DNA of 64,000 nt, taken from a virus. Below the pieces are notes generated by a model. The model was not told the DNA's origin and made no database searches. It saw nothing but the letters and a program-made list of their open reading frames with translations. The stretch lies in the IMG/VR virus record IMGVR_UViG_3300018044_000002, positions 2,682 to 66,681 of that record, one strand, 5' to 3'. Below are positions 10,188 to 60,736 of this stretch, one piece after another (the stretch's first letter is position 1; each line of letters opens with the position of its first letter). The position numbers and the translations under genes are program-made.

Positions 10188-10433
10188 ATGCCCCACAGTT
10201 ACTCCGTCCGCGAAGCAGTGAACGAGCAGGAGGTTTACTCGGCGCTTGTGGTGGCCACGACGGGTTACGGCAACCTGGTCAAGTTCGCGCGCCGGGCCGG
10301 GCTCTCGCCGGAGCATGTCCACGGGATGATGTTCGGGCAGCAGCGGGTGAGCGTGCGGGTCGGGCGGGCACTTGGGTTCGAGTTACGTTGGGTCAGGGTT
10401 GGGCAGGGAACAGGGACAGAAGAGGGAGAGTAG
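10188..10433 (+). CDS. Cro/XRE-like helix-turn-helix protein
   Basis: LVKFARRAGLSPEHVHGMMFG..VGRALG. Confidence 0.55.
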   Translation: MPHSYSVREAVNEQEVYSALVVATTGYGNLVKFARRAGLSPEHVHGMMFGQQRVSVRVGRALGFELRWVRVGQGTGTEEGE

Positions 10434-10434
10434 G

Positions 10435-12036
10435 ATGGCAATCAGGCAGGACGCAGCGGAGCAGCAGTACCAGGACAATCTACGAACGGTACGCGAGGCT
10501 GAGGCGGGAGGAGAGCCGATTGCCGCGCCGCCTTCCCCCGCCGCCGACTCCTTCGATGCCTTCCTCGACCAGCTCGAACTCTCGACCGGTCACTTTCAGC
10601 GCGGACAGGGGGTAGACGTAGCCGGGCTCGAAGAAGCAGCCGGTGCCGTCCCCGATGCCGCCCGAGGCCAGTTCTCTCTCGACGCTCCAACCCCCTGCGC
10701 GTTTGTGACCGGACGCGCAGGCACAGGAAAAACTTGGACCATGCGCGAACGTTGCTTAGCCGACCCGCAGTACGCTGCGCTGTCCTCGTCGACTGGGATC
10801 TCAGCTATAAACCTGAACACGGTCACGATCCACTCGCTGCTCGGCTTCTACGACACGGACTCGCTCAGGGATGCCTACCTGCATGGGTCAACGCAGCGCC
10901 GCCTGCGCAAGGTAGCCGAGGAAGGTTACCGCAACGTCGTGGTGGACGAGTGCTCGATGATCGGTCGCGAGACCTTGGACCTGCTGATCCGAGTCTTCGA
11001 CGATGTGAACCTGCACCGGGAGGAGAAGGGCGAGGGGCCGGTGGGGTTGATACTGCTAGGTGATTTTGGCCAGCTCCCTAGCATTGCCGACCGCCCGCAG
11101 GGTTATCGGCCTACTCCGGGCCGCCGCGGCAAATCCCTGCCAACACCGTGGTGTTTTGAAAGCCAGTTCTGGCCGCGGTTCGCCGAGAACGAAACTCGGC
11201 TGACGAAGGTGTGGCGGCAGGCTGACGCGAGGTTCCTCGCCGCACTGGACTTTGCTCGGGCTGGGCGGGGGCGCGACGCGCTGGACGTGCTTCGCTCGGC
11301 CGGGCTAGCCTTCGCCGACGGAGTGGATATGGTCTACCGCGGGACCACGGTGGTCGGCAAGAACGACGAGGTAGACCGGATCAACCAGCTTCGGTTAGAC
11401 CGGGAGAAGGGCAGGTTGATCTCGCTCCCGAGCCGACGCTGGGCAGTAGGCGGCAAGATTCGTCCTGAATGGAAGAACGTCCCCGAGCGGACCATCCTCC
11501 GCGAAGGCTGCTACGTGATGATCCTTGCCAACCAGTACGACGAAGGCAGGATGGTCTACGCGAACGGAGACTGCGGCTGGGTCCGGGGGATCGAGACGGC
11601 TCCGGGGTCGCCACCGAGCATCATGATCGAACTGGCGCGAACCGGCGAAAAGGTGGCCGTGCAGAGCCTCGTGCGCGACATATCCGCGATGGAGAAGCCG
11701 AGTTGGGTCGGAGGCGAGTGGCAGGATCAGGGGAAGGAGGCGGACGGCAGGTTCCTCGCCCAGCCGCACTACCGGAAGAGTAAGCAGAGGTACGTGGTCG
11801 GGCAGTTGGAGTATTACCCGCTGAGGTTGGCCTATGCGACAACTCTGCATAAAGCCCAAGGGCTGACCATGGACGCCTGCCAGGTGGATATTAGGAGCTG
11901 GATGATGAAGTCGCCCTCCATGATTTACACAGCCCTCTCCCGGTGCAGGACACTCGCCGGGTTACGTATTGTGGGAACTTCAGAGATGTTTGTTGACCGT
12001 TGTAGATGCGACCCGAAGGTGCAGAGATGGCTTTGA
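10435..12036 (+). CDS. Pif1/RecD-like SF1B DNA helicase
   Basis: GRAGTGKT, TIHSLLG, VVDECSM, GDFGQLP, WRQAD, PLRLAYATTLHKAQGLT, YTALSR. Confidence 0.92.
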   Translation: MAIRQDAAEQQYQDNLRTVREAEAGGEPIAAPPSPAADSFDAFLDQLELSTGHFQRGQGVDVAGLEEAAGAVPDAARGQFSLDAPTPCAFVTGRAGTGKTWTMRERCLADPQYAALSSSTGISAINLNTVTIHSLLGFYDTDSLRDAYLHGSTQRRLRKVAEEGYRNVVVDECSMIGRETLDLLIRVFDDVNLHREEKGEGPVGLILLGDFGQLPSIADRPQGYRPTPGRRGKSLPTPWCFESQFWPRFAENETRLTKVWRQADARFLAALDFARAGRGRDALDVLRSAGLAFADGVDMVYRGTTVVGKNDEVDRINQLRLDREKGRLISLPSRRWAVGGKIRPEWKNVPERTILREGCYVMILANQYDEGRMVYANGDCGWVRGIETAPGSPPSIMIELARTGEKVAVQSLVRDISAMEKPSWVGGEWQDQGKEADGRFLAQPHYRKSKQRYVVGQLEYYPLRLAYATTLHKAQGLTMDACQVDIRSWMMKSPSMIYTALSRCRTLAGLRIVGTSEMFVDRCRCDPKVQRWL

Positions 12037-12173
12037 TGAATTGGCCGTATATTGCTGGATTCTTTGATGGAGAGGGTAACATTCGGATAGTTGCCGAAAG
12101 CAACAGAATAAACCCTCAGATTTCCATGGTGCAGTCTCGTGAGCGTGCTCGACGAGAAGGAGTCATTGCGTGA
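12036..12173 (+). pseudogene. Truncated LAGLIDADG homing endonuclease remnant (45 aa)
   Basis: Translated by hand: MNWPYIAGFFDGEGNIRI...PQISMVQ; AT-rich, too short for a full domain. Confidence 0.7.
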
Positions 12174-15100
12174 TGACTTGCCGCACCAAGTCCTGCCCGA
12201 CCTGCCAGGCCTGTCCGCTGCTCTCCGCCGGGTCGGACTTCTCGCAGCCGGAGGGGACGGGGCGCACCAAGGTTCTAATTGTTGGTGAAGCGAATGGTGA
12301 GATGGAAGCGCGGGACCAGCTCCCCTTCCGGCCGTACGCCCCTAGCGGTGCGATCCTCACACGTACGATACGACGCCTCGGCATGGACCGCGAAGACTTT
12401 GCGATCTCGAACCTGTTAAGGTGCAGGCCTTACAACAACATTCTCGATGGTGCCTCCTACGAGTACGCGGCGGTTGCTGCTTGCGAGCCCAACCTGCTCG
12501 AAGTCCTGCGCCAGTACCGTCCAAAAGTCCTGCTCGCGATGGGTAACCTACCGCTGAAGCACCTGACCGGGTTGGCAGGGGAGAAGCGTGGCGTAGGTCA
12601 CCTGCGCGGATACGTCCTCCGAGCCCTGCCGCAGTTCGAGCAGGCCGCTGGCCGGGGCCACTACTCCGACCCCCTGCTCGTCGTCCCTACCTACCATCCA
12701 GCGTTCCTCCGCCACGGCGCGATCCACCTGACTGGTGTGCTGGCGCGGGACATTGCACGGGCGGTGAACGTGGCGGCCGAACGGGATCAGAAGTTCGTGC
12801 TGGACATGCCGGACCTGACCCTGAACAATGGTTCCTACAAGTACCATCCAGTCGACAACCCTGACCCATGGGACGCTGGTTATGCCGATTGGGAGCAACG
12901 ACGGAAGCAAGAGATACAGTCCGACCTTGCTGCATGGATGACCCGTAACAACCTCCGCTACCAGCTCCACCCGACCCGTCGCGACCTTGACCTGTTCTGC
13001 CGCGACGTCAAGGCTCGGTCGGACGCCTGGCTCGCGCTCTCACCCGACGTACAGGCAGCCAGCTATCTTTGTCTGTCGCACGACCTGGAGACGTTTGAGT
13101 CGGCCTCGCTGGACGAGGACGCGACCGACGGGTTCACTGACACTAGGATTCGCCTGAGCCAGTTCTCGATCGAGCCGAGCCAGGGGGTCGCGCTGCAGTG
13201 GGACCGGGACGGGATCGCGGCGACGAGGTGGCTGCTGAAGCTGCCACTGTCGAAGTGCGGGCAGAACTACACAACCTTCGACTACAAGGTTCTACAGGCC
13301 GTGGGTGAGCGCGACTTTGGCGACCGGGCCTATCTGACCCCTGCTGGGCAAGTTCACGACACCCTAAGCATGTTCCACAAGTTCCAGCCAGACCTGCCCG
13401 CGCATCTCCAGTACGCAGCCTCGTTCGCGGGGTGGATGTTTCCGTGGAAGCACCTGAACGAGAGTTGTTTGGAACTGTACGGAGTGATTGACACGGACGC
13501 GGCGCTGCGAGTTTACCAAACCGTCCGCAAGACCTTGGAAGATCGCAAAATGTGGTGGGATTCAGCCTACCCGTCGCGCCAAGCGGCTGGGTTCGTAGCA
13601 CAGGTCGAGCAATTCCGGCCGATTCTCGCGCGCATGGAGGAGAGAGGGTTTCCGGTTGACGACGAGCGGCGCCGGGGGCTGGACGTGGAATTTACAGCAG
13701 CCGAGAAAGAGGCGCGGGCGGAGTTGGACCGGAGGTTCCCCGACGAGGCCAGAAAGGTCAAGAGTTATAAGACGGTGCCGACGGAGGTTCGAGGGTTGCT
13801 AGAGCAGTGGCATCCACCTACGCTGCCTGCCGAGGATGCGACGAACGAGAAGGGGAAACCGCTAGGCAAGGGAGCGCGGGCGAAGCTGGAACGAGCGGCC
13901 AGAAAAGAGTGTTACGCGGCAGTTACGGTAGACGACTTGGTAAGGTTGCGGCAGCAGGTTTTCCAAGAAGCCTCGACCAAGGACGCCGACGGCGAGGAAG
14001 AGGAAGGCGAGCGGTACTACTACGGAATGCGATCGGTAGGTGAGATTGAAGGCCAGCCTACGCCGCCGGTCTGGTGCCGAGTCTACGAGTTCTCGCCTAA
14101 CTCGTCCAAGCAGCTTATCCGGTACATGGAAGCTCGACGGCACAAGATCCCTACCACCAAGTCAGGCGAGAGTACCACAGGCAAGAAGGAACTGGACCGG
14201 CTGGTTGCCAAGTATAAAGATGATTTCTACACAAAGGTGGTTGAATGCCGCGAGATTGGAAAAATGCGTGGGACTTACATTGACGGGTTCAGGCCGCACG
14301 CCGACGGCAGAGTACATACGACTTTTACGGATCAGACCGCCACCAGCCAGTTGGCCTGCTGCGCGTCATGGACCCCGGTGCGCGCGCAGCGAGGGATGGT
14401 AGAGATAAAAGATGTTCAAGTGGGAGATTTGGTGTGGACACACAAACATCGTTGGCGTCCTGTTTTGGCTACATGGGTACATCCCGCCGAGCCGATGGTT
14501 TCGGTACACTTTGTTAATGGGGAAGTTTTAACTTGCACAACTTCCCATAAAGTGTTACTGTCGTCGCATGTCCATATCAAAGGAGTGGTGCCGAAAGACG
14601 GAAAATGTGGAGAAGGTGCTTCTGCTTTATCGAAGTGTGGAATCACCCACGGCACAAACAATAGCCACAGTCCTAAAAACCCAAATCCACAACGTGATTT
14701 GGATTCTTGCTCACCAAATACCAACAGCCGAGTACAAGGTCTTGCAAGCCCTGCGAAGATCGCGCGCTCGGAGAGGGACGGGGAGCCCATGGTACGGAAA
14801 GAAAGGCTCTTTGCACCCTCGCTGGATTGGAGAGGTGAGCGATGGACGAGGATATTTGACTTGCTTGGTAAATGGGAAGCGGGAGTTTGTGCATCGAGTA
14901 GTGATGGCAGGAGCATTAGGAGTGGAGAGGATTCCAGAAGATCTGGACATACACCACATCGACGGAAATACTGCGAACAACAAGCTGGACAACCTAGCCA
15001 TCGTGACACGAGCTGGGCACAAGGCTATTCACTTACTTCAGCGGCAGGACTCGAAGATGTTGGCATTGCGGAAGTCAACTTTGTGGGAAGCCTTCCAGTC

Positions 15101-16054
15101 TATGACATCACAGTAGAAGAAGACGAAAGCTACGAATCCTGTGGGGTCTTTTCTCACAATTCCAGAAGTCCAAATATAACTAACGTTCCCAAGCACGGTC
15201 GTCTGGCCAAGCCGATCAGGAAAATGTTTCGGGACTCGGTTGGCGGGAAGCTGCTGGTCGAGTGGGACAAGAAGAGTTACCACATCATGACAACTGGCTG
15301 GTGCGCACGCGACAAGCAGTATATGAGAATGGGCAGGCTGGACATGCACTCGTTCGTGACTTGGCATTTTCTAAAGCTGCCCAAAGCCGACCAGTTGTTC
15401 GATCTGCCTGACGAGGAGTTGCGCGCTCAGTTGAAGTGGCTGAAGAGTGATGAGAAGCGCAGACATGTTAGGGATTTTCAGGTTAAACGTGCAGTTCTGG
15501 GCATAGGTTTCGCCATGGGAGTCAACAAGCTCTACGACATGAACCGCGAATATTTCGATTCGCTCGCGCAGGCCAAGAAGCTGAAGGACATGCTAAAAGA
15601 CCTGTTCCCCAAGGTCTTTCGCTGGCAGGACCAGATCAAGGAACAAGCTCACCGGCAGGGCTACCTGATGAACGACTTTGGCGCGATCCGGTGGTTCTAC
15701 GAGGTGATTGCGCCGGACGGCCGGGGCGGGTGGAAGCCGGGGGACCAAGCGGAGGAGGCAGTGGCGTTCCTGCCGGCCAGCCTGGCGTTCGGCGATATGC
15801 GTGAGTTGATGAAGGAAGTAGCGCGGCGGGGACTGGACGAGAAGTGGGAGCAGGTTAATACGGTACACGATTCGCTGGTCTACCTGGTCGAGCCGGGAAG
15901 GTTGGAGGAACATTGCCGGGAGATGCACCCGGTACTGGCCGCGCCGAGCAAGGTCTTGGTGGACCCAGAGCTGGCACCAGGTGGGCTGGTGATTGACGTT
16001 GAGCCGAACGCTGGGGAAGATTGGAGCGAAATGAAGGAGGTATTGTTTGCATGA
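12173..16054 (+). CDS. Family A DNA polymerase with N-terminal family-4 UDG-like domain, 3'-5' exonuclease and intein
   Basis: UDG: CxxCxL, IVGEANG, SNLLRCRP, PTYHPAF; Exo I/II/III: HDLET, QNYTTFD, YGVID; polymerase: GRVHTTF, PNITNVP, VHDSL. Confidence 0.9.
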   Translation: MTCRTKSCPTCQACPLLSAGSDFSQPEGTGRTKVLIVGEANGEMEARDQLPFRPYAPSGAILTRTIRRLGMDREDFAISNLLRCRPYNNILDGASYEYAAVAACEPNLLEVLRQYRPKVLLAMGNLPLKHLTGLAGEKRGVGHLRGYVLRALPQFEQAAGRGHYSDPLLVVPTYHPAFLRHGAIHLTGVLARDIARAVNVAAERDQKFVLDMPDLTLNNGSYKYHPVDNPDPWDAGYADWEQRRKQEIQSDLAAWMTRNNLRYQLHPTRRDLDLFCRDVKARSDAWLALSPDVQAASYLCLSHDLETFESASLDEDATDGFTDTRIRLSQFSIEPSQGVALQWDRDGIAATRWLLKLPLSKCGQNYTTFDYKVLQAVGERDFGDRAYLTPAGQVHDTLSMFHKFQPDLPAHLQYAASFAGWMFPWKHLNESCLELYGVIDTDAALRVYQTVRKTLEDRKMWWDSAYPSRQAAGFVAQVEQFRPILARMEERGFPVDDERRRGLDVEFTAAEKEARAELDRRFPDEARKVKSYKTVPTEVRGLLEQWHPPTLPAEDATNEKGKPLGKGARAKLERAARKECYAAVTVDDLVRLRQQVFQEASTKDADGEEEEGERYYYGMRSVGEIEGQPTPPVWCRVYEFSPNSSKQLIRYMEARRHKIPTTKSGESTTGKKELDRLVAKYKDDFYTKVVECREIGKMRGTYIDGFRPHADGRVHTTFTDQTATSQLACCASWTPVRAQRGMVEIKDVQVGDLVWTHKHRWRPVLATWVHPAEPMVSVHFVNGEVLTCTTSHKVLLSSHVHIKGVVPKDGKCGEGASALSKCGITHGTNNSHSPKNPNPQRDLDSCSPNTNSRVQGLASPAKIARSERDGEPMVRKERLFAPSLDWRGERWTRIFDLLGKWEAGVCASSSDGRSIRSGEDSRRSGHTPHRRKYCEQQAGQPSHRDTSWAQGYSLTSAAGLEDVGIAEVNFVGSLPVYDITVEEDESYESCGVFSHNSRSPNITNVPKHGRLAKPIRKMFRDSVGGKLLVEWDKKSYHIMTTGWCARDKQYMRMGRLDMHSFVTWHFLKLPKADQLFDLPDEELRAQLKWLKSDEKRRHVRDFQVKRAVLGIGFAMGVNKLYDMNREYFDSLAQAKKLKDMLKDLFPKVFRWQDQIKEQAHRQGYLMNDFGAIRWFYEVIAPDGRGGWKPGDQAEEAVAFLPASLAFGDMRELMKEVARRGLDEKWEQVNTVHDSLVYLVEPGRLEEHCREMHPVLAAPSKVLVDPELAPGGLVIDVEPNAGEDWSEMKEVLFA
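14533..14561 (+). promoter_or_regulatory. Internal promoter within intein block B
   Basis: TTGCAC-17-TACTGT with extended TG; ATG 14568 lies 6 nt downstream. Confidence 0.6.
14568..15116 (+). CDS. HNH homing endonuclease nested in the +1 frame inside the intein
   Basis: HPRW..DGRGY..FVHRVVM...DIHHIDGNTANNKLDNL..VTRAGHKAIH. Confidence 0.88.
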   Translation: MSISKEWCRKTENVEKVLLLYRSVESPTAQTIATVLKTQIHNVIWILAHQIPTAEYKVLQALRRSRARRGTGSPWYGKKGSLHPRWIGEVSDGRGYLTCLVNGKREFVHRVVMAGALGVERIPEDLDIHHIDGNTANNKLDNLAIVTRAGHKAIHLLQRQDSKMLALRKSTLWEAFQSMTSQ

Positions 16055-16788
16055 TCCTAGTACCTATAGCTGCGCGATTCTGGTCTAAGGTCAAGATCAT
16101 TTTCAGTGGGGACGCCTGCTGGGAATGGCAAGCTAGGTTAAACGAGGATGGTTATGGGATATTCGGCGTGTCGCACTTTGTTGGGTTGGAAAAACGAGGC
16201 AAGTACGAACTCGCTCACCGAATGGCTTATAGACTTTTACATTGTACGTCCATTGCCGCTGCTCAGCGCGTATTGCACACTTGCGACAACCCTAAGTGTG
16301 TCCGTCCTCAACATCTCTGGCTTGGAACTCAGCGGGAGAATGTTGAGGACGCTGCTAAAAAAGGGAGAATGCGCGCGCCAAGAGGCATGTATTGTTCATT
16401 GGCCAAGCTTACTGACGCTAATGTTTATGCGATCAAGAAACGTTTGGCCGCCGGAGAAGGTCAATCTGCGATCGCTCGCGGCTATGAAGTATCGCCGGCC
16501 ACAATCAATGAAATATACTCAGGCCGGACATGGAGACATATTATAGCCGAATTGCCATTCCCGCCAGCCAAGCTTGGTCGGCCCGGTCCTTGGACTCCAG
16601 AAAAGGAGGCCTATATTTGTGAGTACGCCGGGAAGTTGCCGACCAAAGAGATGGCACGTGTATTGAACGTTGGATGCAATGCGTTGAGAAACAAGGCAAC
16701 GTATATGGGAATTAGTGTAAGAGTTGTTAGTAAGGTTATGGATAGGGGTCGATTGCAGTGTGGGGAGGAATTGGTCCGAGATGCGTGA
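16051..16788 (+). CDS. Free-standing HNH homing endonuclease with C-terminal HTH
   Basis: RFWSKV, CWEW, AHRMAY, VLHTCDNPKCVRPQHL..GTQRENV; ATGA overlap with the polymerase stop. Confidence 0.9.
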   Translation: MILVPIAARFWSKVKIIFSGDACWEWQARLNEDGYGIFGVSHFVGLEKRGKYELAHRMAYRLLHCTSIAAAQRVLHTCDNPKCVRPQHLWLGTQRENVEDAAKKGRMRAPRGMYCSLAKLTDANVYAIKKRLAAGEGQSAIARGYEVSPATINEIYSGRTWRHIIAELPFPPAKLGRPGPWTPEKEAYICEYAGKLPTKEMARVLNVGCNALRNKATYMGISVRVVSKVMDRGRLQCGEELVRDA

Positions 16789-52696: not shown

Positions 52697-53537
52697 TGGG
52701 CACCTCCTCGGCAGGAACCCTCGCGGCGGCCATCGCGGCGGCGATATTGCGATGGCGGATCTGGCGTTGTAGGCCAGCAAATCTACTTCCTTCGGCCTGC
52801 TTAGACCTCCCCGGATCGTGGATACTAAGGCATCTCGACGGGTCGTCGTTGAAAAACAAAAGGTCGTCGGAATACAGGGTTATTCCCTGTGCGGAGTATG
52901 CCTCGACAGGTGAGCGGCGCAGAGGATCATCCCATGCCAGATTACCCTTGAGGGCCTCTCCAATAAAAAAATCGTCCCAGGGATAATCAAGTTTGGGAGC
53001 AGTCAGACCAAAGCCGATTTCTAGTTGGTTTGGCCAATCATCAAGATAATCCGCGCGCCACTCGGTATCGACGATCTTCTGCATGGCTTTCTTCGATAGC
53101 CAGATGCCACAGCCACCATGACAAAAATCATAGTAGGCCATGGGTGTTTTAAAGACTCCTCCGAGTCGTAGAGTGCAAGGGAAGTTGCCGCCGTAATCAA
53201 ACTGGAAAAGATTAGCCTTAAGAATGCGCTCAGGCCACCACCACGTATCGTCCATGGCTCTCCAGAGGAATTGTGCATCCTGCTCCAAGGCCCACTGGCA
53301 AGCGGCTTTATCTTTCAGGTGAAGGTGGGTCTTCAGATCGGAGCCCGGAGCGTGAAGGATCTCGTCGTCAGGTATGCCGGTCTTGCTCCAATCGCCGTAA
53401 GGCGCGTCACCAAAGACAAACTTGTATGGAATTGGCGAGTTAGGCAAGAACTGCGCCCGAGCAATCTGGCGGTAGTGCCAGCGGGAGGGATCATGCGCGG
53501 TGAGAATGGCTGCTACAACCTTGTTACTTTGAATCAT
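52686..53537 (-). CDS. Glycosyltransferase, GT31/fringe-like
   Basis: YKFVFG, FLWRAMDDTW, GGCGIWLSKKAM, DDFFIG. Confidence 0.7.
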   Translation of the reverse strand: MIQSNKVVAAILTAHDPSRWHYRQIARAQFLPNSPIPYKFVFGDAPYGDWSKTGIPDDEILHAPGSDLKTHLHLKDKAACQWALEQDAQFLWRAMDDTWWWPERILKANLFQFDYGGNFPCTLRLGGVFKTPMAYYDFCHGGCGIWLSKKAMQKIVDTEWRADYLDDWPNQLEIGFGLTAPKLDYPWDDFFIGEALKGNLAWDDPLRRSPVEAYSAQGITLYSDDLLFFNDDPSRCLSIHDPGRSKQAEGSRFAGLQRQIRHRNIAAAMAAARVPAEEVPSGD

Positions 53538-54432
53538 TGATCTTCTCCATTCTGTGCTTTATTTGCCATGCGCTTTGCCTGTTACGCAGACATGTCCTGC
53601 AACGCATTCTCGTACCTTTTCCTTTTCCCGCGGAAACCATTACAACATTATCACCCGCTACGACATGACCGTGCTTACAAACTTTGCTCCAACGATGTGG
53701 GCGCCTGTTTCCTGCTTGCTCTTTTGCTGTGGCCCAACGCGTGTTGCCTAGCTCGTAATTACCATCGTTGTTTGGGAAGCGGTCTATGGATAAGCCGGGA
53801 GGGCACTCGCCTACGTCACGCAGGAAGTTCTCGAAATCCATCCAAGATGGACATACCGATATGCCCCGACCACCATAGTTAGGCCACGAGTGGCACTTAG
53901 GATTAAGACATCTCTCTACCATTCCTTGCCAGATATGATAAGTTCTAGTTTTGCTCTGGCCATGTGTTGTTGCTCGCGCTGCAACGTCATCTCTATGCCA
54001 GCATCCGCAGCTTTTGGTCATGCCGTCTAATAGGTTAAACTTACTGACTATTGTTTCTTTTCCGCACTCACATCGACACAACCAAAAACGCGTCTTCTTT
54101 ATCCGCCCCTCGTTGCGTAGGCAGATTACGGTCAGGCGTCCGAACACCCTACCAGTTAGATCCTGCTTTGATGTGTTCGCTTTGGAGCGTGCAACGAAAC
54201 CTTCCACAATCAGACAGCCGCAACTACGAGTGAGTCCGTATCGAAGAGTGTACTTGCTGGTTGAAACTTCCTTCCCACAATCACAAAGGCAGCGCCACAA
54301 TTCAATCCCATCCTTGTTGCGCCCACCCGGACCAAGCACAGTCAACCTACCGAACTTTTGTCCAATGAAGTCCTCGACGCGAATCCTTGCTGCCGGTCCT
54401 CTTCGTGTTACAGTTTTCTTAGGGGTCGTCAT
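53524..54432 (-). CDS. HNH homing endonuclease with tandem Cys-rich (GRLTV..WxCxCxCG..SCGC) repeats
   Basis: YGGRGISVC, SIDRFPNNDGNYELGNTRWAT..Q; start moved to ATG 54432. Confidence 0.88.
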   Translation of the reverse strand: MTTPKKTVTRRGPAARIRVEDFIGQKFGRLTVLGPGGRNKDGIELWRCLCDCGKEVSTSKYTLRYGLTRSCGCLIVEGFVARSKANTSKQDLTGRVFGRLTVICLRNEGRIKKTRFWLCRCECGKETIVSKFNLLDGMTKSCGCWHRDDVAARATTHGQSKTRTYHIWQGMVERCLNPKCHSWPNYGGRGISVCPSWMDFENFLRDVGECPPGLSIDRFPNNDGNYELGNTRWATAKEQAGNRRPHRWSKVCKHGHVVAGDNVVMVSAGKGKGTRMRCRTCLRNRQSAWQIKHRMEKINDSK

Positions 54433-54509
54433 TCGTCGGACCTCCATCCGATGTGACATGAGTCGAGAGCGCAAACTCTCGACTCCCCCATTGTAACTCA
54501 GACGAGTGA

Positions 54510-55277
54510 TCATAGATAGAGCGCTTTCAATTTCTCATACAGCGAGTCAGGATGGTAGGTCGCGTCGGTCAGAAGCGTGGGGCCGGGAGGCAGGTCGAGG
54601 TCGAATCCTCGTCCGGTGCGGTCGGCTGGACCCTGGTTCCACGCCGCGTGGAAAAGGTGCAGAGAGTAAGAGTTCTCCAAATCCCACGTCGCCTCCGGGT
54701 TTACCAGTTCGCGTATACGCAGGTGGTGGATCGGGTCGAACGCGCGGCCAGGCTGGGCGTAGTTGGTCATGTGGAAGTATTCCACCGCCCCCTGTACGAA
54801 CTCCGCTCCGATCTCCTGCCAGGATAGGCGAGCACGATCGTCAGCGGAGAGGGAGGCGATATAGGCATGACAATGCTGGAGGAGCGGCGCTCCTGCCGGA
54901 GCCTTGGCTAGCGCAAGCGAGACAGTAGACTCGTCGTGATCGGAATAGAAGACGTACTCAGAGGAAATGTCAAGAGGTTTCAAGGCCACGTTGTCCAGGT
55001 CAGAATGCCATCCTCCTTTGTCGAGCAGGAGTTTTATGCGGAACCAGTCACTGAATTGCTGGGAGCAGCGGAAGGTCGCCTGCTCAGACTCGGGCAGTAT
55101 CTTAGCGGCGTCTAAGACCAGTACACCTTCCGGCACACCCTTTACATAGTCGTCGTAGGTGTAGAGATGGAACTGGTGGCCGTTGGCGAGGAAGGAGGCC
55201 ATGCTGAGCCGCTCCATCGTGGTCAGCGGGCCGGACCAGAAGCCTTGAACGACCTGGTTGTCTACTGAGAGGGTCAC
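54510..55277 (-). CDS. Glycosyltransferase, GT32-like (DXD)
   Basis: FSDWFRIKLLLDKGGWHSDLD, WQEIG, SLHLF. Confidence 0.82.
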   Translation of the reverse strand: MTLSVDNQVVQGFWSGPLTTMERLSMASFLANGHQFHLYTYDDYVKGVPEGVLVLDAAKILPESEQATFRCSQQFSDWFRIKLLLDKGGWHSDLDNVALKPLDISSEYVFYSDHDESTVSLALAKAPAGAPLLQHCHAYIASLSADDRARLSWQEIGAEFVQGAVEYFHMTNYAQPGRAFDPIHHLRIRELVNPEATWDLENSYSLHLFHAAWNQGPADRTGRGFDLDLPPGPTLLTDATYHPDSLYEKLKALYL

Positions 55278-56026
55278 GGTTGTCCTCCCCACCCGGCAGG
55301 GTTCCGCACCGTCCCCAGTTCCCCCCGGATCATCGCCGCGCATTTCTGTTCGAACAGGTCGCGCATCTGGGGGGCGTCGTCGTAGGTCCCCGCCGGCTCG
55401 TGCCACTGATGGTGGACGAGGGGCAGGTCAGGGTAGCAGAACTCGACGCCTTCTCCGGCGAGACGGGCAGCGAGGTCGTCGTCATCGTAGCCGGCTCCAC
55501 GAAAATCTTCATCAAACCCGCGCAGCCGGGTCAGCAACTCGCGCCGGATCGCGCCGCAGAAGAAGTAGGGTCGCTGGTTGTCCGGGCCGCAGTAGGACTG
55601 CTGCACCGCGCCAGCCGGGTCAAGCGCCAGCACGTGTGCAAAGACGGCGGCGGGTCGGGAGGAAGGAGCGTCGAGGACAGCCGCGACCAGCCGCGCAACG
55701 GTGTCCGGCGACTGGTGCTCGCACTCGGCGTTCTGGAGGATCACTACCTCGCCCGAGGCCGCCCGAATCCCCATGTTATTCGGAAGGGACGGATTGCGAA
55801 AGGCGGCGGAAGCGGGGCGCCGGCAGGGGAGCCAGCGCGCGCCGAACTGTTCGCAGAGGAATCGCGCGGAAGGGTGGCCGTGGCGGCCATCGCCGTCGTC
55901 GACCACGATCACCTCACAGGGGTAAGGAAGAGAGGAGATCTGCCGCGCGATCGACGCGAGGGTCCGGGCGAGCTGTGGATTGCGATTGAAGGTCGAAATA
56001 ACAATAGAAACAGTCGGTTGACTCAC
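55274..56026 (-). CDS. Glycosyltransferase family 2
   Basis: VSIVISTFNR, EVIVVDDG, GFDEDF.G.GYDDDD. Confidence 0.88.
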   Translation of the reverse strand: MSQPTVSIVISTFNRNPQLARTLASIARQISSLPYPCEVIVVDDGDGRHGHPSARFLCEQFGARWLPCRRPASAAFRNPSLPNNMGIRAASGEVVILQNAECEHQSPDTVARLVAAVLDAPSSRPAAVFAHVLALDPAGAVQQSYCGPDNQRPYFFCGAIRRELLTRLRGFDEDFRGAGYDDDDLAARLAGEGVEFCYPDLPLVHHQWHEPAGTYDDAPQMRDLFEQKCAAMIRGELGTVRNPAGWGGQP

Positions 56027-56571
56027 AGTTGAATCACCCCTAACCCGTAGCTTCCAGGGCGGATGTACTTCACGTAATCCGGCCCGAACACCTTCCGAAA
56101 CTCGTTGAATGCCCGCCACACCCCAGGGAAGTTGTCATTCGCCAGCACGTCATGTACCAGCACCAACCCGCCCCGTAGAACCAACTCGGAATATGCCCTG
56201 AGATCGTGCAACGTGGCCTCGTAGGTGTGGCAACCATCTACATATAACACGGAGTAGTGTTGGTTGCAAACTTTATCGTAGGTTTCTGCCAACTGACTGT
56301 CTCCGAGCACGAAGCGCCACTGTGGAGAGTCAGGAAAGTTCTCGGCGCATAGTGGGTTGATGTCGATCGAGGTCACTGAGCTGGCTGCACCGGTCAGGAA
56401 GGCGGTGGTAGAGTTCCCGCAGTCGCAGCCGATTTCGAGGATCGCGCCGGGCAGGGAGTGGAGGAGAGGGAGGTGGTCACGGGTGTCGATCAGCTCGGCA
56501 CAGGTGAGGAGGTGCTGATAGTGGTCGGCGAGAGTAGCGGCGAGTTTGGGCTGAGATGTACCGAGAGCCAT
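56023..56571 (-). CDS. Class I SAM-dependent methyltransferase (Methyltransf_24-like)
   Basis: LEIGCDCGNST, YVDGCHTY, GGLVLVHD. Confidence 0.85.
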   Translation of the reverse strand: MALGTSQPKLAATLADHYQHLLTCAELIDTRDHLPLLHSLPGAILEIGCDCGNSTTAFLTGAASSVTSIDINPLCAENFPDSPQWRFVLGDSQLAETYDKVCNQHYSVLYVDGCHTYEATLHDLRAYSELVLRGGLVLVHDVLANDNFPGVWRAFNEFRKVFGPDYVKYIRPGSYGLGVIQL

Positions 56572-56575
56572 GTTG

Positions 56576-57517
56576 TTACTTGCCTCCTTGCGCCGCGGCG
56601 AGGTGCCGGTCGTTCCAGTACCGCGCGAGGTCCGGCAGGGTCAGTCGCTGCTCGTCGAGGAGGAGCTTGATCTCGCGGATGCCGTCGGAGAGCGAGTAGG
56701 CCGGGTCGAAGCCGAGGTCGCGCCGGGCTCGCTCGCTGCTGACGCGGTAGTTCCGGTTGTCCTCGAAGTGTTGAGGGGTGCGGAGGACTTCGAGGTTGGG
56801 GAACTCGGTGGCGACCTGCGCGGCGAGGTCAGCGATGGACCAGTTGGACCGCGAAAGGTTGTAGACCCCGCGCGCCTCCTGCTCCAGCCCCCGCACCACC
56901 GCCCGCGCCGCATCCCGAACGTGTAGCAGAGGCCGGTACTGCTCCCCGCCGAACACGGTGATCCGGTGGTCCCGGTGCGCGCGCTGGGTCAGGGTGTTCA
57001 GGACCAAGTCGAAACGCACGCGGGAGAAGTGGTCGGAGAGTCCGAAGAGGGTGCCGAGGCGGAACACGAGCGCATCCTTCCCGGCGAGGTACTGCTCGGC
57101 GGCCAGCTTGGTCGAGGCGTAGACCGAGAGCGGGTTGGTCGGCGAGGTCTCGTCGAGTTCCGAGTCGGCTGCGCCGTAGACCGAGCAGGTCGAGAGGAAG
57201 ATTATTCTGCCGTCGAAGTTGTCGGCCAGCCACTGCACCGAGTCTTGGTTGACTGCCACCGCGTTGGCTGGGTCGAGCGCACAGGCCCCGTCGCCCACGA
57301 CCGCAGCCAGCCAGACCACGGCGTCGGCCCACAGGAGGTGAGGCAGGAGTCGCGCGTGGTCGCGGATGTCGCCCCGGACAAACGGGACCGGCTTGCGGTA
57401 GCTCTCCTCGTAGAGGAGCGAGTCGTACACTCGAAAGTCGTAGTTGTTGTTGCCGAGCAGCAAGTCAGTGACTGCGCCTCCGACGTAACCCGCGCCGCCA
57501 ACGATAAGGATTTTCAT
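56576..57517 (-). CDS. NAD-dependent nucleotide-sugar epimerase/dehydratase
   Basis: GGAGYVG, STCSVYG, YASTK, RPLLHVRD. Confidence 0.9.
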   Translation of the reverse strand: MKILIVGGAGYVGGAVTDLLLGNNNYDFRVYDSLLYEESYRKPVPFVRGDIRDHARLLPHLLWADAVVWLAAVVGDGACALDPANAVAVNQDSVQWLADNFDGRIIFLSTCSVYGAADSELDETSPTNPLSVYASTKLAAEQYLAGKDALVFRLGTLFGLSDHFSRVRFDLVLNTLTQRAHRDHRITVFGGEQYRPLLHVRDAARAVVRGLEQEARGVYNLSRSNWSIADLAAQVATEFPNLEVLRTPQHFEDNRNYRVSSERARRDLGFDPAYSLSDGIREIKLLLDEQRLTLPDLARYWNDRHLAAAQGGK

Positions 57518-58632
57518 ACTGCCTGCCTTTCTGGTAGGTAAGAGAGGAGGATGCGTACGACAGTCTCGGCCACGTTCGTGCGGAGGTAGTCGGCGGGCGG
57601 GGTCCAGGAGGCGTGGTCGGCGCGGGTCACCAGCCGCACGAGGTCGAGGATTCGCGCCGGGTCAGCGCCGGAGAGGACCGACGTGCCGCACTCCACTGTT
57701 TCTGGCCTCTCGGTATGGTCGCGCAGGGTGACGGAGGGGGTCTGGAGCAGGCAGGACTCCTCTTGCACGGTACCTGAGTCCGAGAGGGTGCAGAAGGCGG
57801 CTCGCTGAAGCGCGATGAAGTCGAAGAAGGGGAAGGGAGGGAGGAATCGCACAGAGGGGCTGAGGTCCCCCCCGCGCAGATTGAGCGCGTCGATTCTCTG
57901 CTGCAAGTGTGGATGGGTACTGACGATAACAGGGTGAAGGTATGTGTATTGGAGTTGGTTAAACGCCTCGATGAAGTTTCGGAGGCGGGCCGGGTCGTCG
58001 ATGTTCTCAGCGCGGTGCAGTGTGACGAGGAAGAACTGGCGCGCGGTCAGGCCGAGCCGCTCGCGCACCGCTGCGGCGGCAAGGTCGATCTGTCTGCCGT
58101 AGTGTTGGATGACCTCCCAGATCGGGTTCCCCGTGACGAACACTCGGTCCGATGGGATGCCCTCTGCTAGCAGGTTCGCCCGGCTCCGCTCCGTGTAAGG
58201 CAGCAGGACTCGGCTGGCATGGTCGATCAGCCGGCGGTTGACTTCCTCGGGCGAGGTGGGCGAGTAGGACCGGTTCCCTGCCTCCATGTGGTAGACCGAG
58301 AGGCCGAGCCGGGCGGCAGGAATCGCGGCCAGGGACGAGTTGGTGTCACCGAGGATCAGCACGCGGTCGGGGCGGGTGGCGGTGAGCAGGAGCTCGATGG
58401 CAGGCAGCAGCGCGGCCAGTTGCTCGCCGAACGAGCCTTGCATTTCGAGTTGGATGTCCGGCGCACGCAGGCCAAGCTCGTCGAAGAAGACTTGCGAGAG
58501 GCCGGGGTCGTGGTTCTGGCCGGTGTGCACGAGCAGGTGGTTCGCCCTCCCGACCGCCTCGTCGAGCAGGGGGATCACGCGCGAGAGGCGAATGATCTCC
58601 GGGCGCGTGCCGAGGATGGTGAGCACCTTCAT
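57514..58632 (-). CDS. UDP-N-acetylhexosamine 2-epimerase (WecB family, FnlC/WbjD-like)
   Basis: GTRPEIIRL, HTGQN, GDTNS, HMEAGNR, PEEVNR, DSGTVQEE, TERPE. Confidence 0.92.
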   Translation of the reverse strand: MKVLTILGTRPEIIRLSRVIPLLDEAVGRANHLLVHTGQNHDPGLSQVFFDELGLRAPDIQLEMQGSFGEQLAALLPAIELLLTATRPDRVLILGDTNSSLAAIPAARLGLSVYHMEAGNRSYSPTSPEEVNRRLIDHASRVLLPYTERSRANLLAEGIPSDRVFVTGNPIWEVIQHYGRQIDLAAAAVRERLGLTARQFFLVTLHRAENIDDPARLRNFIEAFNQLQYTYLHPVIVSTHPHLQQRIDALNLRGGDLSPSVRFLPPFPFFDFIALQRAAFCTLSDSGTVQEESCLLQTPSVTLRDHTERPETVECGTSVLSGADPARILDLVRLVTRADHASWTPPADYLRTNVAETVVRILLSYLPERQAV

Positions 58633-59537
58633 CGGCTAACCTCCCCGGCCATCTCTGCCACCATCTCGCGGATCGTCGGCGGGGCTGGGTATCCAGCCGC
58701 CTGCCACAGCCCCTCGTTCACTTCCGGGTGGTCAGTCGCCAAGGTCCGGTCCACCCTGCTCGCCGCCTCCTTCTCCTCGATCCGGATGTCCCGCCGCGAG
58801 TAGAAGTGCGCGAAGTTGCGCAGCAGTTCCGACTTGGGGATTGCGTAAGCGGGGAGAACGTGCTGGACCGGGGGGAGGACAGGGAAGTTCCTCTCGTCCG
58901 ACATGATGCCATGGCAGAGGCGGGCGAAGGCAAGGGTGGTAACGCCGTTCCAGAAGTGGTTAGTAAAGCCGGAGACAGTCGCGCTCGGCGGCTGCGCAAG
59001 GAACCACTGAAGCAACGAGCAGACGGGGCGGGGAGGGTCTACCTGTTCCGGCCCCACAATCGAGCAGCGCAGGTGCCGGACGGTGGGCGAGCGGACCTCG
59101 CCGAGGGACTTGGTCTTGCCATAGACGTCGAGGGGGTCGTGGGGGGAGGACTCGAAGTAGGAGCCGGCCGACGCGCCCTGCCCGGAGTAGACGCAGTCGG
59201 TGGCGATTTGCAGAACGCGCGCTCCAACACGCTCGGCTACCTCCGCGAGCATGTGAGGAAACAGCGCGTTGACTCGCACAGCGCGTTGAACCGAGCACGA
59301 GTTCTGTTCGTCGATGCGTGGCTTGATGATGCCGATGCAGTTGATGATGTAGTCCTGTCCATTAAGCAGGTACACCAGACTTTCAACACTAACTTGCGCT
59401 GCGTCGAATGGGAACTCTCCGCCTCTATGGTCGATCACGCACAGGTCGTACTCCGGCTGCTGACTGAGGAACCGCGCCACCATCCCCCCGAGCATCCCGG
59501 TCGAGCCGAGGATTGCAACCTTCACAGACTTACTCAT
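58629..59537 (-). CDS. RmlD-like NDP-4-keto-6-deoxysugar reductase
   Basis: GSTGMLG, INCIGII, TDCVYSG, YGKTK. Confidence 0.88.
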   Translation of the reverse strand: MSKSVKVAILGSTGMLGGMVARFLSQQPEYDLCVIDHRGGEFPFDAAQVSVESLVYLLNGQDYIINCIGIIKPRIDEQNSCSVQRAVRVNALFPHMLAEVAERVGARVLQIATDCVYSGQGASAGSYFESSPHDPLDVYGKTKSLGEVRSPTVRHLRCSIVGPEQVDPPRPVCSLLQWFLAQPPSATVSGFTNHFWNGVTTLAFARLCHGIMSDERNFPVLPPVQHVLPAYAIPKSELLRNFAHFYSRRDIRIEEKEAASRVDRTLATDHPEVNEGLWQAAGYPAPPTIREMVAEMAGEVSR

Positions 59538-59965
59538 CGTTCAATTACCTCCCACGGATTCCACCGCCTCGCCTCGAACCTCACATCGTCCTCCCGCGAC
59601 TCCTCGACCGTGGCCGACGAGAACCACATCAGGGTCGCGTCCCCGGTCAGGCTCATCCACCCGTTCGCGTACCCCGGCGGGATGGCGAGGATGGCGGGGC
59701 GGGCAGCGGAGAGAACGAACCGCTCGACGTCGTCGTTGAGCCCGGCGAGCGGGACCGTGCAGACCAGCGCGCTGCCCGCTACGGCCACCACCCACTTCCG
59801 CTCCCGCCGGTGCCCGTGCCATGCGCGGACCATCCCGGCGCGGTGGTTCTGGGTCAGGTAAGCGCGGCGGACCCCGGTGAACTGGAAATCGTTGACGAAG
59901 GAGAGCGTGCCGCGGTCGTCGACTGCGAGGGCGCCGGGGATCAGGGTGGGGATTGCGTAGTCCAT
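59534..59965 (-). CDS. RmlC/FdtA-like cupin sugar epimerase/isomerase
   Basis: DDRG, VRAWHGH, IPPGYANG. Confidence 0.85.
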   Translation of the reverse strand: MDYAIPTLIPGALAVDDRGTLSFVNDFQFTGVRRAYLTQNHRAGMVRAWHGHRRERKWVVAVAGSALVCTVPLAGLNDDVERFVLSAARPAILAIPPGYANGWMSLTGDATLMWFSSATVEESREDDVRFEARRWNPWEVIER

Positions 59966-59980
59966 GCTGACTTGACCTTT

Positions 59981-60736
59981 CTACTGTCCCTTAGCGATGT
60001 TATCGACCTGCCGTGATTCTGGCACGATGTCCTCGTACAACACGGGTACGAGGCGCTGGAACTCAGCGAGAAGCGGGATTACAACCTGCCGCATCTGTGG
60101 ATGAGCTTCCTTGCTGGTTCTCATCAGGAAGAAGTGCCGCCAAACGCGAAGGTTGTAGGTGACGATGATCTTGCTGGAGAGCGCGTTAGGGAAAACCGAG
60201 CGGGCTTCCTGCGGGCGCCAGCCTTTCTCCAAGAGATTTTTGTATTTGCGCTCTACTGTGTCTATAGAGTCGAGCCAATCGCCGTCGTATTGACACACAG
60301 CCAATCCCACCTGCTCGCCCCCAGGGTGGTGATACCAACGGGAACCTCCATCGGTCGCGATGCGCATTGCAGATGGCTCTATTCCACTGGAACAATATGG
60401 ACATTTTGTTTCGACAATCGGATATATGAACGTCGGCGGCATCTTCTTCGCGTAGTTCACGAACCGGGTGCTTTCCTGTGTGTAGGCCGCAAGACGATGC
60501 CGAACGATCTCGTGCGTGATACCCCGGTCCACAAGAAACTCGACTGAGGCTGACACATGCTCAGTCACCGACCAGTCTCCATGTTGCAGCACGACGGCTC
60601 GGATAAACTTCTCTGGCGAGTCGCTCGCGTTCTCTTCTGACCGGTGACTGACCCGCGCGGCGTATTCGATGCGCGACAGAGAGCCAGCAAGCAGGTCCGG
60701 CTCCATAATCTTTGCGTAAGGCTGAACAATCTTCAT
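59981..60736 (-). CDS. thyX: FAD-dependent thymidylate synthase
   Basis: AARVSH, SVTEH, RGITHEIVRHR..YTQESTR, EARSVFP, AHPQMR. Confidence 0.92.
   Translation of the reverse strand: MKIVQPYAKIMEPDLLAGSLSRIEYAARVSHRSEENASDSPEKFIRAVVLQHGDWSVTEHVSASVEFLVDRGITHEIVRHRLAAYTQESTRFVNYAKKMPPTFIYPIVETKCPYCSSGIEPSAMRIATDGGSRWYHHPGGEQVGLAVCQYDGDWLDSIDTVERKYKNLLEKGWRPQEARSVFPNALSSKIIVTYNLRVWRHFFLMRTSKEAHPQMRQVVIPLLAEFQRLVPVLYEDIVPESRQVDNIAKGQ

Follow-up and report, generated by a model that had tools for sequence, protein, structure and literature searches.

How can a family A DNA polymerase keep its catalytic core while replacing the residues that read the minor groove and exclude ribonucleotides? This question is raised by a gene in a 64,000-nucleotide stretch of viral DNA (hereafter the window), which covers bases 2682-66681 of a 66,681-base IMG/VR virus record (IMGVR_UViG_3300018044_000002; CheckV completeness 87%). 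The gene encodes a uracil-DNA glycosylase (UDG) of family 4, a 3'-5' exonuclease and a family A polymerase (PolA) fused in one chain. In family A polymerases, R668, E710, Y766, Q849 and E883 (E. coli Pol I numbering) are textbook residues for minor-groove reading, ribonucleotide exclusion and metal binding. An earlier by-eye inspection of the sequence (below, the original prediction) had suggested that the window enzyme has lost such residues in a coordinated manner, with altered substrate specificity as a possible consequence. We found that these residues are replaced together in at least 264 sequence clusters, in a clade whose replication appears to rely on this enzyme. Judged from its sequences, the clade forms a coherent subfamily of phage UDG-PolAs, large and hitherto undescribed, whose active site has been co-ordinately rewired.

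Domain organization of the polymerase precursor

The open reading frame (ORF) of the gene gives a product of 1294 residues from a GTG start, with a 1293-residue form (P0002) starting at the ATG one codon later. Family-4 UDG, 3'-5' exonuclease and family A polymerase follow one another in this order, with an intein inside the TGR motif of the polymerase. The Pfam profiles UDG (65.1 bits, cut-off 24.3) and DNA_pol_A (PF00476; 65.9 bits, cut-off 34.3) both match the precursor. In a single-sequence comparison with the PDB, family-4 UDGs were recovered at E 3e-13 and Taq polymerase weakly, at E 2e-8; the window polymerase is therefore a divergent PolA. The following features were assigned to the precursor.

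12170..16054, + strand: precursor gene, UDG / 3'-5' exonuclease / family A polymerase (ORF; Pfam)
12191..12766, + strand: family-4 UDG domain, residues 8-199 (Pfam; motifs; PDB alignments)
12956..13579, + strand: 3'-5' exonuclease domain, approximate borders (hhalign to E. coli Klenow fragment)
13076-13090, + strand: Exo I, SHDLE (hhalign to Klenow fragment)
13262-13282, + strand: Exo II, QNYTTFD (hhalign to Klenow fragment)
13478-13498, + strand: Exo III, YGVIDTD (hhalign to Klenow fragment)
14336..14356, + strand: TGR-equivalent motif, N-extein half, TATSQLA, with Q727 at the place of E. coli R668 (profile alignments)
14357..15160, + strand: intein, residues 730-997; CCASWTPV at the start, a TTSH block inside and VYDITVEEDESYESCGVFSHN (...VFSHN) at the end, before the +1 Ser (homolog gaps; motifs)
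15161..15190, + strand: TGR-equivalent motif, C-extein half, SRSPNITNVP (E. coli STDPNLQNIP) (alignments)
15266..15289, + strand: motif A, DKKSYHIM; D1033 is catalytic D705, K1035 is at the place of S707 and H1038 at the steric-gate place of E710 (alignments)
15470..15514, + strand: motif B / O-helix, RDFQVKRAVLGIGFA; K1106 is K758, L1110 is F762 and F1114 is Y766 (alignments)
15752..15781, + strand: motif 6, EEAVAFLPAS, with A1203 at the place of Q849 (alignments)
15866..15874, + strand: motif C, HDS; H1233 is H881, D1234 is catalytic D882 and S1235 is at the place of E883 (alignments)

The UDG domain, which was aligned to 1l9g, 4zbx and 1ui0, carries four cysteines at the ligand positions of the Fe-S cluster together with the family-4 signature, namely motif A of the form GEA.GE.E (GEANGEME, residues 39-46), the Asn of ..N..RCRP (SNLLRCRP, residues 80-87) and the His of the HPA motif B (YHPAF, residues 175-179). 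In the 89 intein-free relatives that make up our profile A1, E47, N82, H177 and P178 (numbered as in one of the relatives, P0004) are invariant or at least 90% conserved. The catalytic residues of the phiLo UDG are E53 and H178 (Missoury et al., PMC13697223), and we infer that they are equivalent to the UDG motif residues of the window clade, whose UDG is apparently live. The exonuclease motifs of the DEDDy type are complete: by hhalign, D305/E307, N366/D371 and Y437/D441 correspond to D355/E357, N420/D424 and Y497/D501 of E. coli, and the two acidic residues of Exo I are kept by most of 264 relatives (D in 250/264, E in 251/264).

The borders of the intein were derived from relatives without one: 117 of the 119 aligned homologs are gapped across those columns (MAFFT), and P0004 (1025 residues; 86% identical over region 998-1294) reads an uninterrupted TATSQLASRNPNITNVP. 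The junction of TSQLA with S, which the original prediction had obtained by removing the intein by eye, is therefore right. Besides its absence from these relatives, the insert has the features of a class 1 intein, with Cys1 (C730), the TTSH block, a C-terminal HN and the +1 Ser, and the Pfam families Hint_2 and Intein_splicing score below their cut-offs only. The precursor is predicted to mature by intein splicing.

A Klenow-like fold with exonuclease, thumb, palm and fingers is confidently predicted by the AlphaFold2 model of P0004 that was computed on A1 (pLDDT 92.4, pTM 0.86). When this model was compared with the PDB by Foldseek, the top matches were the Klenow fragment and the large fragments of Taq and Bst, with E-values from 3e-21 to 4e-19 and a target TM of 0.69-0.77 (1kfs, 3rrg and 4ds4 among them), with 16-18% identity in the structural matches, and no structure of YerA41 or phiLo was among the matches listed to rank 50 (PDB entries to April 2026).

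Active-site residues of the polymerase domain

Profile A1 was used for the alignments to reference enzymes. HMMER aligned it to Taq (E 1.7e-26) and to E. coli Pol I (E 1.8e-27), and hhalign to E. coli and Paraburkholderia Pol I (probability 99.7%, 557 columns); T7 gp5 gave no significant alignment to the clade profile (E 0.012) and was therefore dropped as a reference. The three alignments concur in equating Q727 with R668, D1033 with D705, H1038 with E710, K1106 with K758, L1110 with F762, F1114 with Y766, A1203 with Q849, and H1233-D1234-S1235 with H881-D882-E883. They confirm what had been read by eye, namely Gln for R668, His for E710, Phe for Y766, Ala for Q849, Ser for E883, and Leu at 762. 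It had been foreseen that a proper alignment might restore the canonical residues; all three kept the substitutions. The catalytic Asp pair, the motif B Lys and the three exonuclease motifs proved to be retained by alignment, as had been stated, and H881 is kept too.

Two places depend on the alignment. The loss of N845 stands, whereas the residue that takes its place is either A1199 (ungapped E. coli alignment), which was the first choice by eye, or L1201 (Taq alignment, with a 2-residue gap); neither is Asn. In motif B of the window enzyme, R1101 lies five residues before the Lys (K-5) and D1102 at K-4, the canonical place of the Arg. Here, at the place of Arg754, hhalign puts a 5-residue gap, and the model of P0004 shows an unbroken helix (residues 825-843).

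Conservation of the substitutions across the clade

With residues 998-1294 as the query, 139 proteins were retrieved in a word-indexed search; most of the 120 matches listed contain a UDG domain as well as PolA, the minority PolA without UDG, and they lie on metagenome contigs of up to about 150 kb. In an exhaustive profile search of 1.84 billion cluster representatives, the weakest of the best 150 matches listed had E 2e-206, and 2455 proteins, other PolAs and UDGs among them, were found at E <= 1e-30. Residues were counted in 264 collected metagenomic relatives aligned to the profile.

The R668 place is occupied by Q in 248/264 relatives and the E710 place by H in 261/264. Among the 16 rows without Q, seven have the window-type intein, seven a second insert a few residues downstream, one is gapped and one misaligned; by pattern match, Q stands directly before the intein in 6 of the 7 proteins with the same intein. 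Of the three rows without H, two show Phe where the gate should be; the other is the misaligned row just mentioned. The catalytic core is kept (D705 in 262/264, K758 in 263/264, H881 in 261/264, D882 in 262/264), and some of the best-conserved columns are those of motifs A, B, 6 and C.

The remaining replaced places hold the following residues: L at F762 (219/264), F, L, N or Y at Y766 (155, 47, 45 and 15 relatives, respectively), A, Q or S at Q849 (183, 40 and 33), and S, A, E or D at E883 (185, 49, 12 and 11). Y766 and Q849 covary, with the combinations F+A in 140, L+Q in 35 and N with A or S in 37 of the 264 relatives. The motif B Arg appears to be shifted by one residue (R at K-5 in 260/264, with D in 195 or N in 45 at K-4); E. 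coli, T7, N4, SPO1 and the related locus L071 have Arg at K-4. Lys or Arg occupies the S707 place in 206/264 relatives (K in 183, R in 23), and H the R682 place in 162/264. By this tally, the acidic residues E710 and E883 and as many as three basic residues (R668, R682 and R841, the last by the HMMER alignments to Taq and E. coli) appear to have been lost and one basic residue gained, which looks like a charge and hydrogen-bond network rewired with compensation.

With the profile we also retrieved 60 viral and 7 genome loci, and Q and H occur together in every clade member among them. The nearest outgroups, L071 and GenBank MW202554.1 (24% identical each), keep Arg and Glu, and so do N4 gp39 and E. 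coli. In a quick maximum-likelihood tree (60 rows, 393 profile columns of the polymerase domain), 58 clade rows stand apart from L071 and E. coli on a branch with an SH-aLRT (approximate likelihood-ratio test) support of 96. All 58 rows have H and 57 have Q, the window's own row being an alignment artefact of the intein. Q849 is retained in several side or early lineages of this tree and the E883 place is E or D in three, which suggests that the Q/H pair was the founding change and that the others came later; this order is tentative, the root being placed by two very long branches.

The changes are therefore a property of the clade, not a peculiarity of the window gene. They are coordinated, as had been proposed, and their co-occurrence in homologs, a check suggested along with that proposal, is seen in the pairing of Q and H throughout the clade. 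The argument that they do not reflect simple decay also holds: the clade in which the changes are fixed has preserved its metal-binding Asp residues, together with the motif B Lys, H881 and the exonuclease motifs.

A probable replicative polymerase with a rewired active site

In our reading, the enzyme is probably the sole replicative DNA polymerase of a clade of phages of roughly 55-100 kb, active on normal deoxyribonucleoside triphosphates (dNTPs), with a His steric gate and an active UDG. We searched 35 related virus records, of which 32 are at least 90% complete and 18 have direct terminal repeats. PolB was found in none of them and not in the window's own record, which has one PolA reading frame; therefore, the UDG-PolA is the only recognisable polymerase. 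The genomes in these records (L015-L071) fall into two size groups, of about 54-75 kb and about 93-101 kb.

In this reading, three activities (family-4 UDG, proofreading 3'-5' exonuclease, family A polymerase) would reside in one chain, and the intein in the TGR motif would be spliced out to give the mature polymerase. The active site would have been rewired as a set, with Gln for the minor-groove Arg R668, His for the Glu steric gate E710, loss of Q849 and E883 in most lineages, the O-helix Arg one residue earlier, and a Lys or Arg newly placed two positions beyond the Asp of motif A. Tyr766, the hydrogen-bond partner of E710, would be free to vary (F, N, L or Y); its variability once Glu is replaced fits the hydrogen bond between Tyr714 and Glu658, the equivalents of Y766 and E710, in the closed complex of Bst Pol I (PMC4256020). 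The enzyme would use ordinary dNTPs, Gln727 would still donate a hydrogen bond to the minor groove at the primer terminus, and the UDG domain would remove template uracil ahead of the polymerase, as in the SP15-like UDG-PolAs.

His1038 would still block the 2'-OH, as His does in family D polymerases. The change of E710 to His need not open the gate, since His is a proven steric gate in family D, where H931 lies beside the sugar of the incoming nucleotide and excludes ribonucleotides, and a proposed one in family C polymerases (PMC7708050). Family D polymerase has an unrelated two-barrel fold, and the parallel is a mechanistic analogy only, by which a working His gate in the clade is plausible.

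Several points weigh against this interpretation. Klenow mutant studies suggest that these substitutions might cripple a canonical PolA, and Gln, being shorter than Arg, may not reach the minor groove. The substituted positions hold residues that are conserved across the known PolA clusters (PMC10201439). The place of the O-helix Arg is uncertain, and the continuous helix of the model would favour Asp where the canonical Arg stands. Modification genes and primases were sought with a handful of Pfam families, and most genes of these phages match nothing. The activity and substrate choice of the clade enzymes are themselves inferred.

The clade offers a natural experiment on which checkpoint functions of a polymerase are dispensable or replaceable. 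It is possibly also a source of polymerases with unusual tolerance, for use with modified or unnatural nucleotides.

Alternative explanations

The substitutions may instead be an adaptation to a non-canonical genome chemistry, in which the lost readout by R668, Q849 and N845 would let DNA with modified bases or sugars be copied and extended. We consider this unlikely, although SPO1-like and SP15-like UDG-PolAs belong to phages with thymine-replaced or hypermodified DNA (PMC10201439, PMC13697223), and Phe at Y766, present in 155/264 relatives, is a substitution that Czernecki et al. called unique to two DpoZ clusters (PMC10201439). The window also has a gene cluster that would suit such a chemistry.

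54510-60736, - strand (one ORF on the + strand): cluster of a weak glycosyltransferase match, Methyltransf_24, NAD-dependent epimerase/dehydratase, UDP-GlcNAc 2-epimerase, a 377-residue ORF and ThyX

The putative glycosyltransferase, two sugar epimerases, methyltransferase and ThyX of this cluster (54.5-60.7 kb) could act in DNA modification or in glycosylation of the virion or host surface. Against the former, homologs of the cluster, its sugar genes included, were found in none of the flanks (10 kb at most to either side of the polymerase) of 58 related loci. PurZ-type enzymes (PF00709) and ThyA-type synthases or hydroxymethylases are each absent from the 35 related records and from the window's own; ThyX, expected to make ordinary dTMP, is present in the latter and in 2/35 of the former. 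The base-replacement enzymes that were searched for (PurZ, ThyA, ThyX) do not travel with the UDG-PolA clade, which leaves the suggestion of modified bases in the original prediction unsupported. 2-Aminoadenine was rejected as the cause of the lost minor-groove contacts because PurZ was found neither in the 35 related records nor in the window's own. To our knowledge, the other known phage base modifications sit in the major groove, which again counts against this explanation. SP15-like enzymes, moreover, leave the major groove free (PMC13697223). In its favour, most genes of these phages cannot be annotated: PHROGs and Pfam scans of neighbouring ORFs gave no match for most of them, so the window's phage is largely unannotated, and probably the group too.

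A broader possibility, which we likewise regard as doubtful, is that the minor-groove and sugar checkpoints were given up for an unusual task, be it copying an unknown DNA modification, efficient bypass of, and extension beyond, the abasic sites that its own UDG makes, or starting or extending with ribonucleotides. If this were true, a ribonucleotide start or extension would also explain why a primase was found in 0/35 genomes, and the strict R668Q/E710H pairing would mark a new functional class of replicative polymerase.

It is quite improbable, in our assessment, that sugar selection has been loosened by the changes at the steric gate and its partner, so that the enzyme uses or starts with ribonucleotides, or takes unusual primers, and thereby offsets a missing phage primase. 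E710 and Y766, both changed, are tied to sugar discrimination (PMC10201439), and no primase is recognisable, as had been noted before: Prim-Pol, Toprim_2 and the DnaG zinc ribbon are each absent from all 35 related records, and Prim-Pol, Toprim_2 and an N4 gp43-like protein were not found in the window's own record. The absence of three families is weak evidence, however, given that most of the genes cannot be annotated. Host primases or recombination-primed replication serve many phages, and the clade has a nuclease, a DUF669-like protein and a helicase (see below). The intact proofreading exonuclease and UDG domain fit a DNA replicase, and His is bulky and a proven steric gate in family D (PMC7708050), so the tolerance of ribonucleotides that had been suggested for the enzyme finds no support.

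We think it very unlikely that the polymerase domain is dead or much weakened and serves as a scaffold for UDG and exonuclease, the phage being copied by a host polymerase. As many as six residues that are normally conserved in the polymerase are replaced, but both metal-binding Asp residues, K758 and H881 are each kept in at least 261/264 relatives, the replacements are conserved within well-conserved motifs, and the search for PolB found no other polymerase in the related records or the window's own. Q and H are near-invariant, which therefore points to selection on the site, not drift. Finally, it is hardly credible that misalignment, owing to the intein and the low identity to the references, produced the odd residues: identity to Klenow and Taq is 16-18% and the places of N845 and R754 differ between alignments, but the three alignments concur on R668, D705, E710, K758, F762, Y766, Q849, H881, D882 and E883, and the flanking conserved residues match (LSS..PN.QN.P, the motif A Asp, K...[FL]G...G and HD).

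Inteins and mobile elements

The window has an HNH endonuclease ORF within the intein-coding stretch and two free-standing HNH endonuclease genes.

14568..15116, + strand: HNH_3 endonuclease ORF, 182 residues, in the +1 frame within the intein-coding stretch (Pfam HNH_3, E 6.9e-11)
16021-16788, + strand: free-standing HNH endonuclease gene with HNH_3, zf-His_Me_endon and HTH_38; overlaps the last 34 bases of the polymerase gene (Pfam)
53524-54513, - strand: second free-standing HNH endonuclease gene

Across the first of these, frame 0 of the intein stays open and reads as a low-complexity linker, and the ATG of the out-of-frame ORF has no obvious Shine-Dalgarno sequence before it. Contig L044 (7567-8373) has a homologous out-of-frame HNH ORF; window and L044 are identical at 108/181 residues in the +1 frame and at 57/181 in frame 0 over the same bases. 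A frame-0 imprint of the HNH ORF is seen in four further proteins, and P0152 is a 142-residue mini version. A pair of sequencing frameshifts was rejected as an explanation, because this arrangement recurs in the independent contig L044, start and stop places included; the four frame-0 imprints also speak against it. In 2025, out-of-frame endonucleases were described in inteins (EndoVII-like), and an HNH endonuclease lying out of frame in a non-intein insertion (10.1101/2025.01.02.630785; PMC11855218); an HNH endonuclease that lies out of frame within an intein is in neither of these two papers.

A second, different insert lies a few residues downstream in the TGR/PN.QN motif, between ITGN and CQNFP, in seven relatives (P0022, P0073, P0149, P0174, P0182, P0184 and P0193), so this motif is a hot spot for invasion by inserts in the clade. 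Further relatives have inserts elsewhere, with LAGLIDADG or Hint Pfam domains. Homologs of the HNH gene at 16021-16788 adjoin the polymerase in 7 related loci.

Replication genes and possible hosts

The gene directly upstream of the polymerase encodes a helicase.

10372..12036, + strand: PIF1/RecD-like superfamily 1 helicase (Pfam PIF1, E 4e-13, above cut-off)

In flanks of up to 10 kb to either side of the polymerase, homologs of the PIF1 helicase are present in 36/58 related viral loci, and a PD-(D/E)XK nuclease and a DUF669-like protein in 35/58 each. In the window, the PD-(D/E)XK nuclease upstream of the polymerase was assigned by its features and structural look-alikes, the DUF669-like protein near the polymerase is a lead only, and a nearby AAA_25 ATPase matches below the Pfam cut-off.

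UDG-exonuclease and polymerase are encoded by separate ORFs in 10 loci (L048, L059, L060, L062-L066, L068 and L069), which overlap by a few bases in some and are about 500 bases or more apart in others (about 1.5 kb in L048). An exonuclease/polymerase split has so far been described for T7-like PolAs (PMC10201439).

Clade members occur on contigs labelled as metagenome-assembled genomes (MAGs) of Terracidiphilus, Terriglobia and Acidobacteriota, which hints at acidobacterial hosts, although the binning of phage contigs is unreliable. On a 2.5-Mb contig of an Acidobacteriota MAG (L013), a 229-residue ORF at 9854-10540 matches the exonuclease part only (profile nodes 193-368) and is 43% identical to P0004. 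This ORF may be a prophage remnant and thus a further host hint.

Comparison with known polymerases

E. coli Klenow, Taq and Bst large fragments share with the window enzyme the fold, the two catalytic Asp residues, K758 and H881, and its DEDDy motifs match those of E. coli. The window enzyme differs from them by the replacement of R668, E710, F762, Y766, N845, Q849 and E883, apparently by the register of Arg754, and by the added UDG and intein; it therefore lacks the canonical PolA signature residues Arg668, Glu710, N845, Q849 and E883. Among 19 clusters of PolAs, with the UDG-PolAs of SPO1, SP-10 and SP-15 then outside the clusters, Czernecki et al. (2023) found the catalytic residues strictly conserved, the sole variation of TGR being Thr to Ala in one cluster (PMC10201439). 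No description of the Q/H variant was found in the literature searched, though the supplementary alignments of two key papers might include it.

A DNA search with the gene gave no match among 50,697 phage records. A tblastn search with P0004 gave 79 records at E <= 1e-5, a number that rose to 164 at E <= 1e-3; every one is below 60% identity and none covers 80% of the query, the best match being 24% identical; consequently, no cultured clade member was found among the matches listed (best 60 of 164). The nearest deposited record, MW202554.1 (uncultured Caudoviricetes sp.), encodes UDG, exonuclease and PolA with an HDS motif C, in two coding sequences as in 10 clade loci, but it is 24% identical and keeps Arg (TLRLSS) and Glu (DKNQLEYR).

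Gp31 of Bacillus phage SPO1 likewise combines an N-terminal family-4 UDG with exonuclease and PolA, and the catalytic residues of the UDG are kept in SPO1-like UDG-PolAs (PMC13697223). Its profile match is weak (E 1.5e-9, exon 2), the first exon aligning in the UDG part only. Each of the two genes has been entered by a mobile element that carries an HNH endonuclease, in SPO1 an intron and in the window an intein. Motif C is HDS in both; given SPO1 gp31 and MW202554.1, HDS is not new by itself, so the change of HDE to HDS that was originally reported is present but not special to the clade. SPO1 gp31 differs in that motifs A (DYSQLELR) and 6 (NTPIQG) have stayed canonical and that motif B has its Arg at K-4 (QRTASK).

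The N4-like UDG-PolAs (cluster 17 in PMC10201439) have the same three-domain order. The replication module of N4 is similar as well, with an annotated helicase, a nuclease, a Sak4-like ATPase and a single-stranded DNA-binding protein (SSB); in the window, PIF1 is above and AAA_25 below cut-off, and the nuclease and an SSB-like protein were identified by features and structural look-alikes. N4 gp39 (profile E 1e-11) differs by SGRLSS, DFASLEDR and Arg at K-4. Cluster 17 carries Phe at B3, and the catalytic residues of its UDG are lost (PMC10201439), whereas 219/264 clade members have Leu at B3, and the UDG motifs are kept. With DpoZ of 2-aminoadenine genomes the window enzyme shares Phe at B4 and not the co-occurrence with PurZ.

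By sequence, then, the clade appears to lie outside the three UDG-PolA groups that we found described, the N4-like, SPO1-like and SP15-like ones, the last of which was compared by description only. The SP15-like enzymes (YerA41, phiLo, SP-15) are UDG-fused replicative PolAs like that of the window. They have about 1300 residues (YerA41, 1306), two large inserts and a C-terminal domain of about 80 residues, whereas intein-free clade members have about 900-1050. Their phages have hypermodified thymine, their polymerase travels with PolX and a ligase, and sugar selection relies on an O-helix Phe and an E710-type steric gate (PMC13697223). In these enzymes, the UDG excises template deoxyuridine ahead of the polymerase, which then bypasses the abasic site (Missoury et al., NAR 2026, PMC13697223), and by analogy they may provide the best functional model for the UDG domain of the window enzyme.

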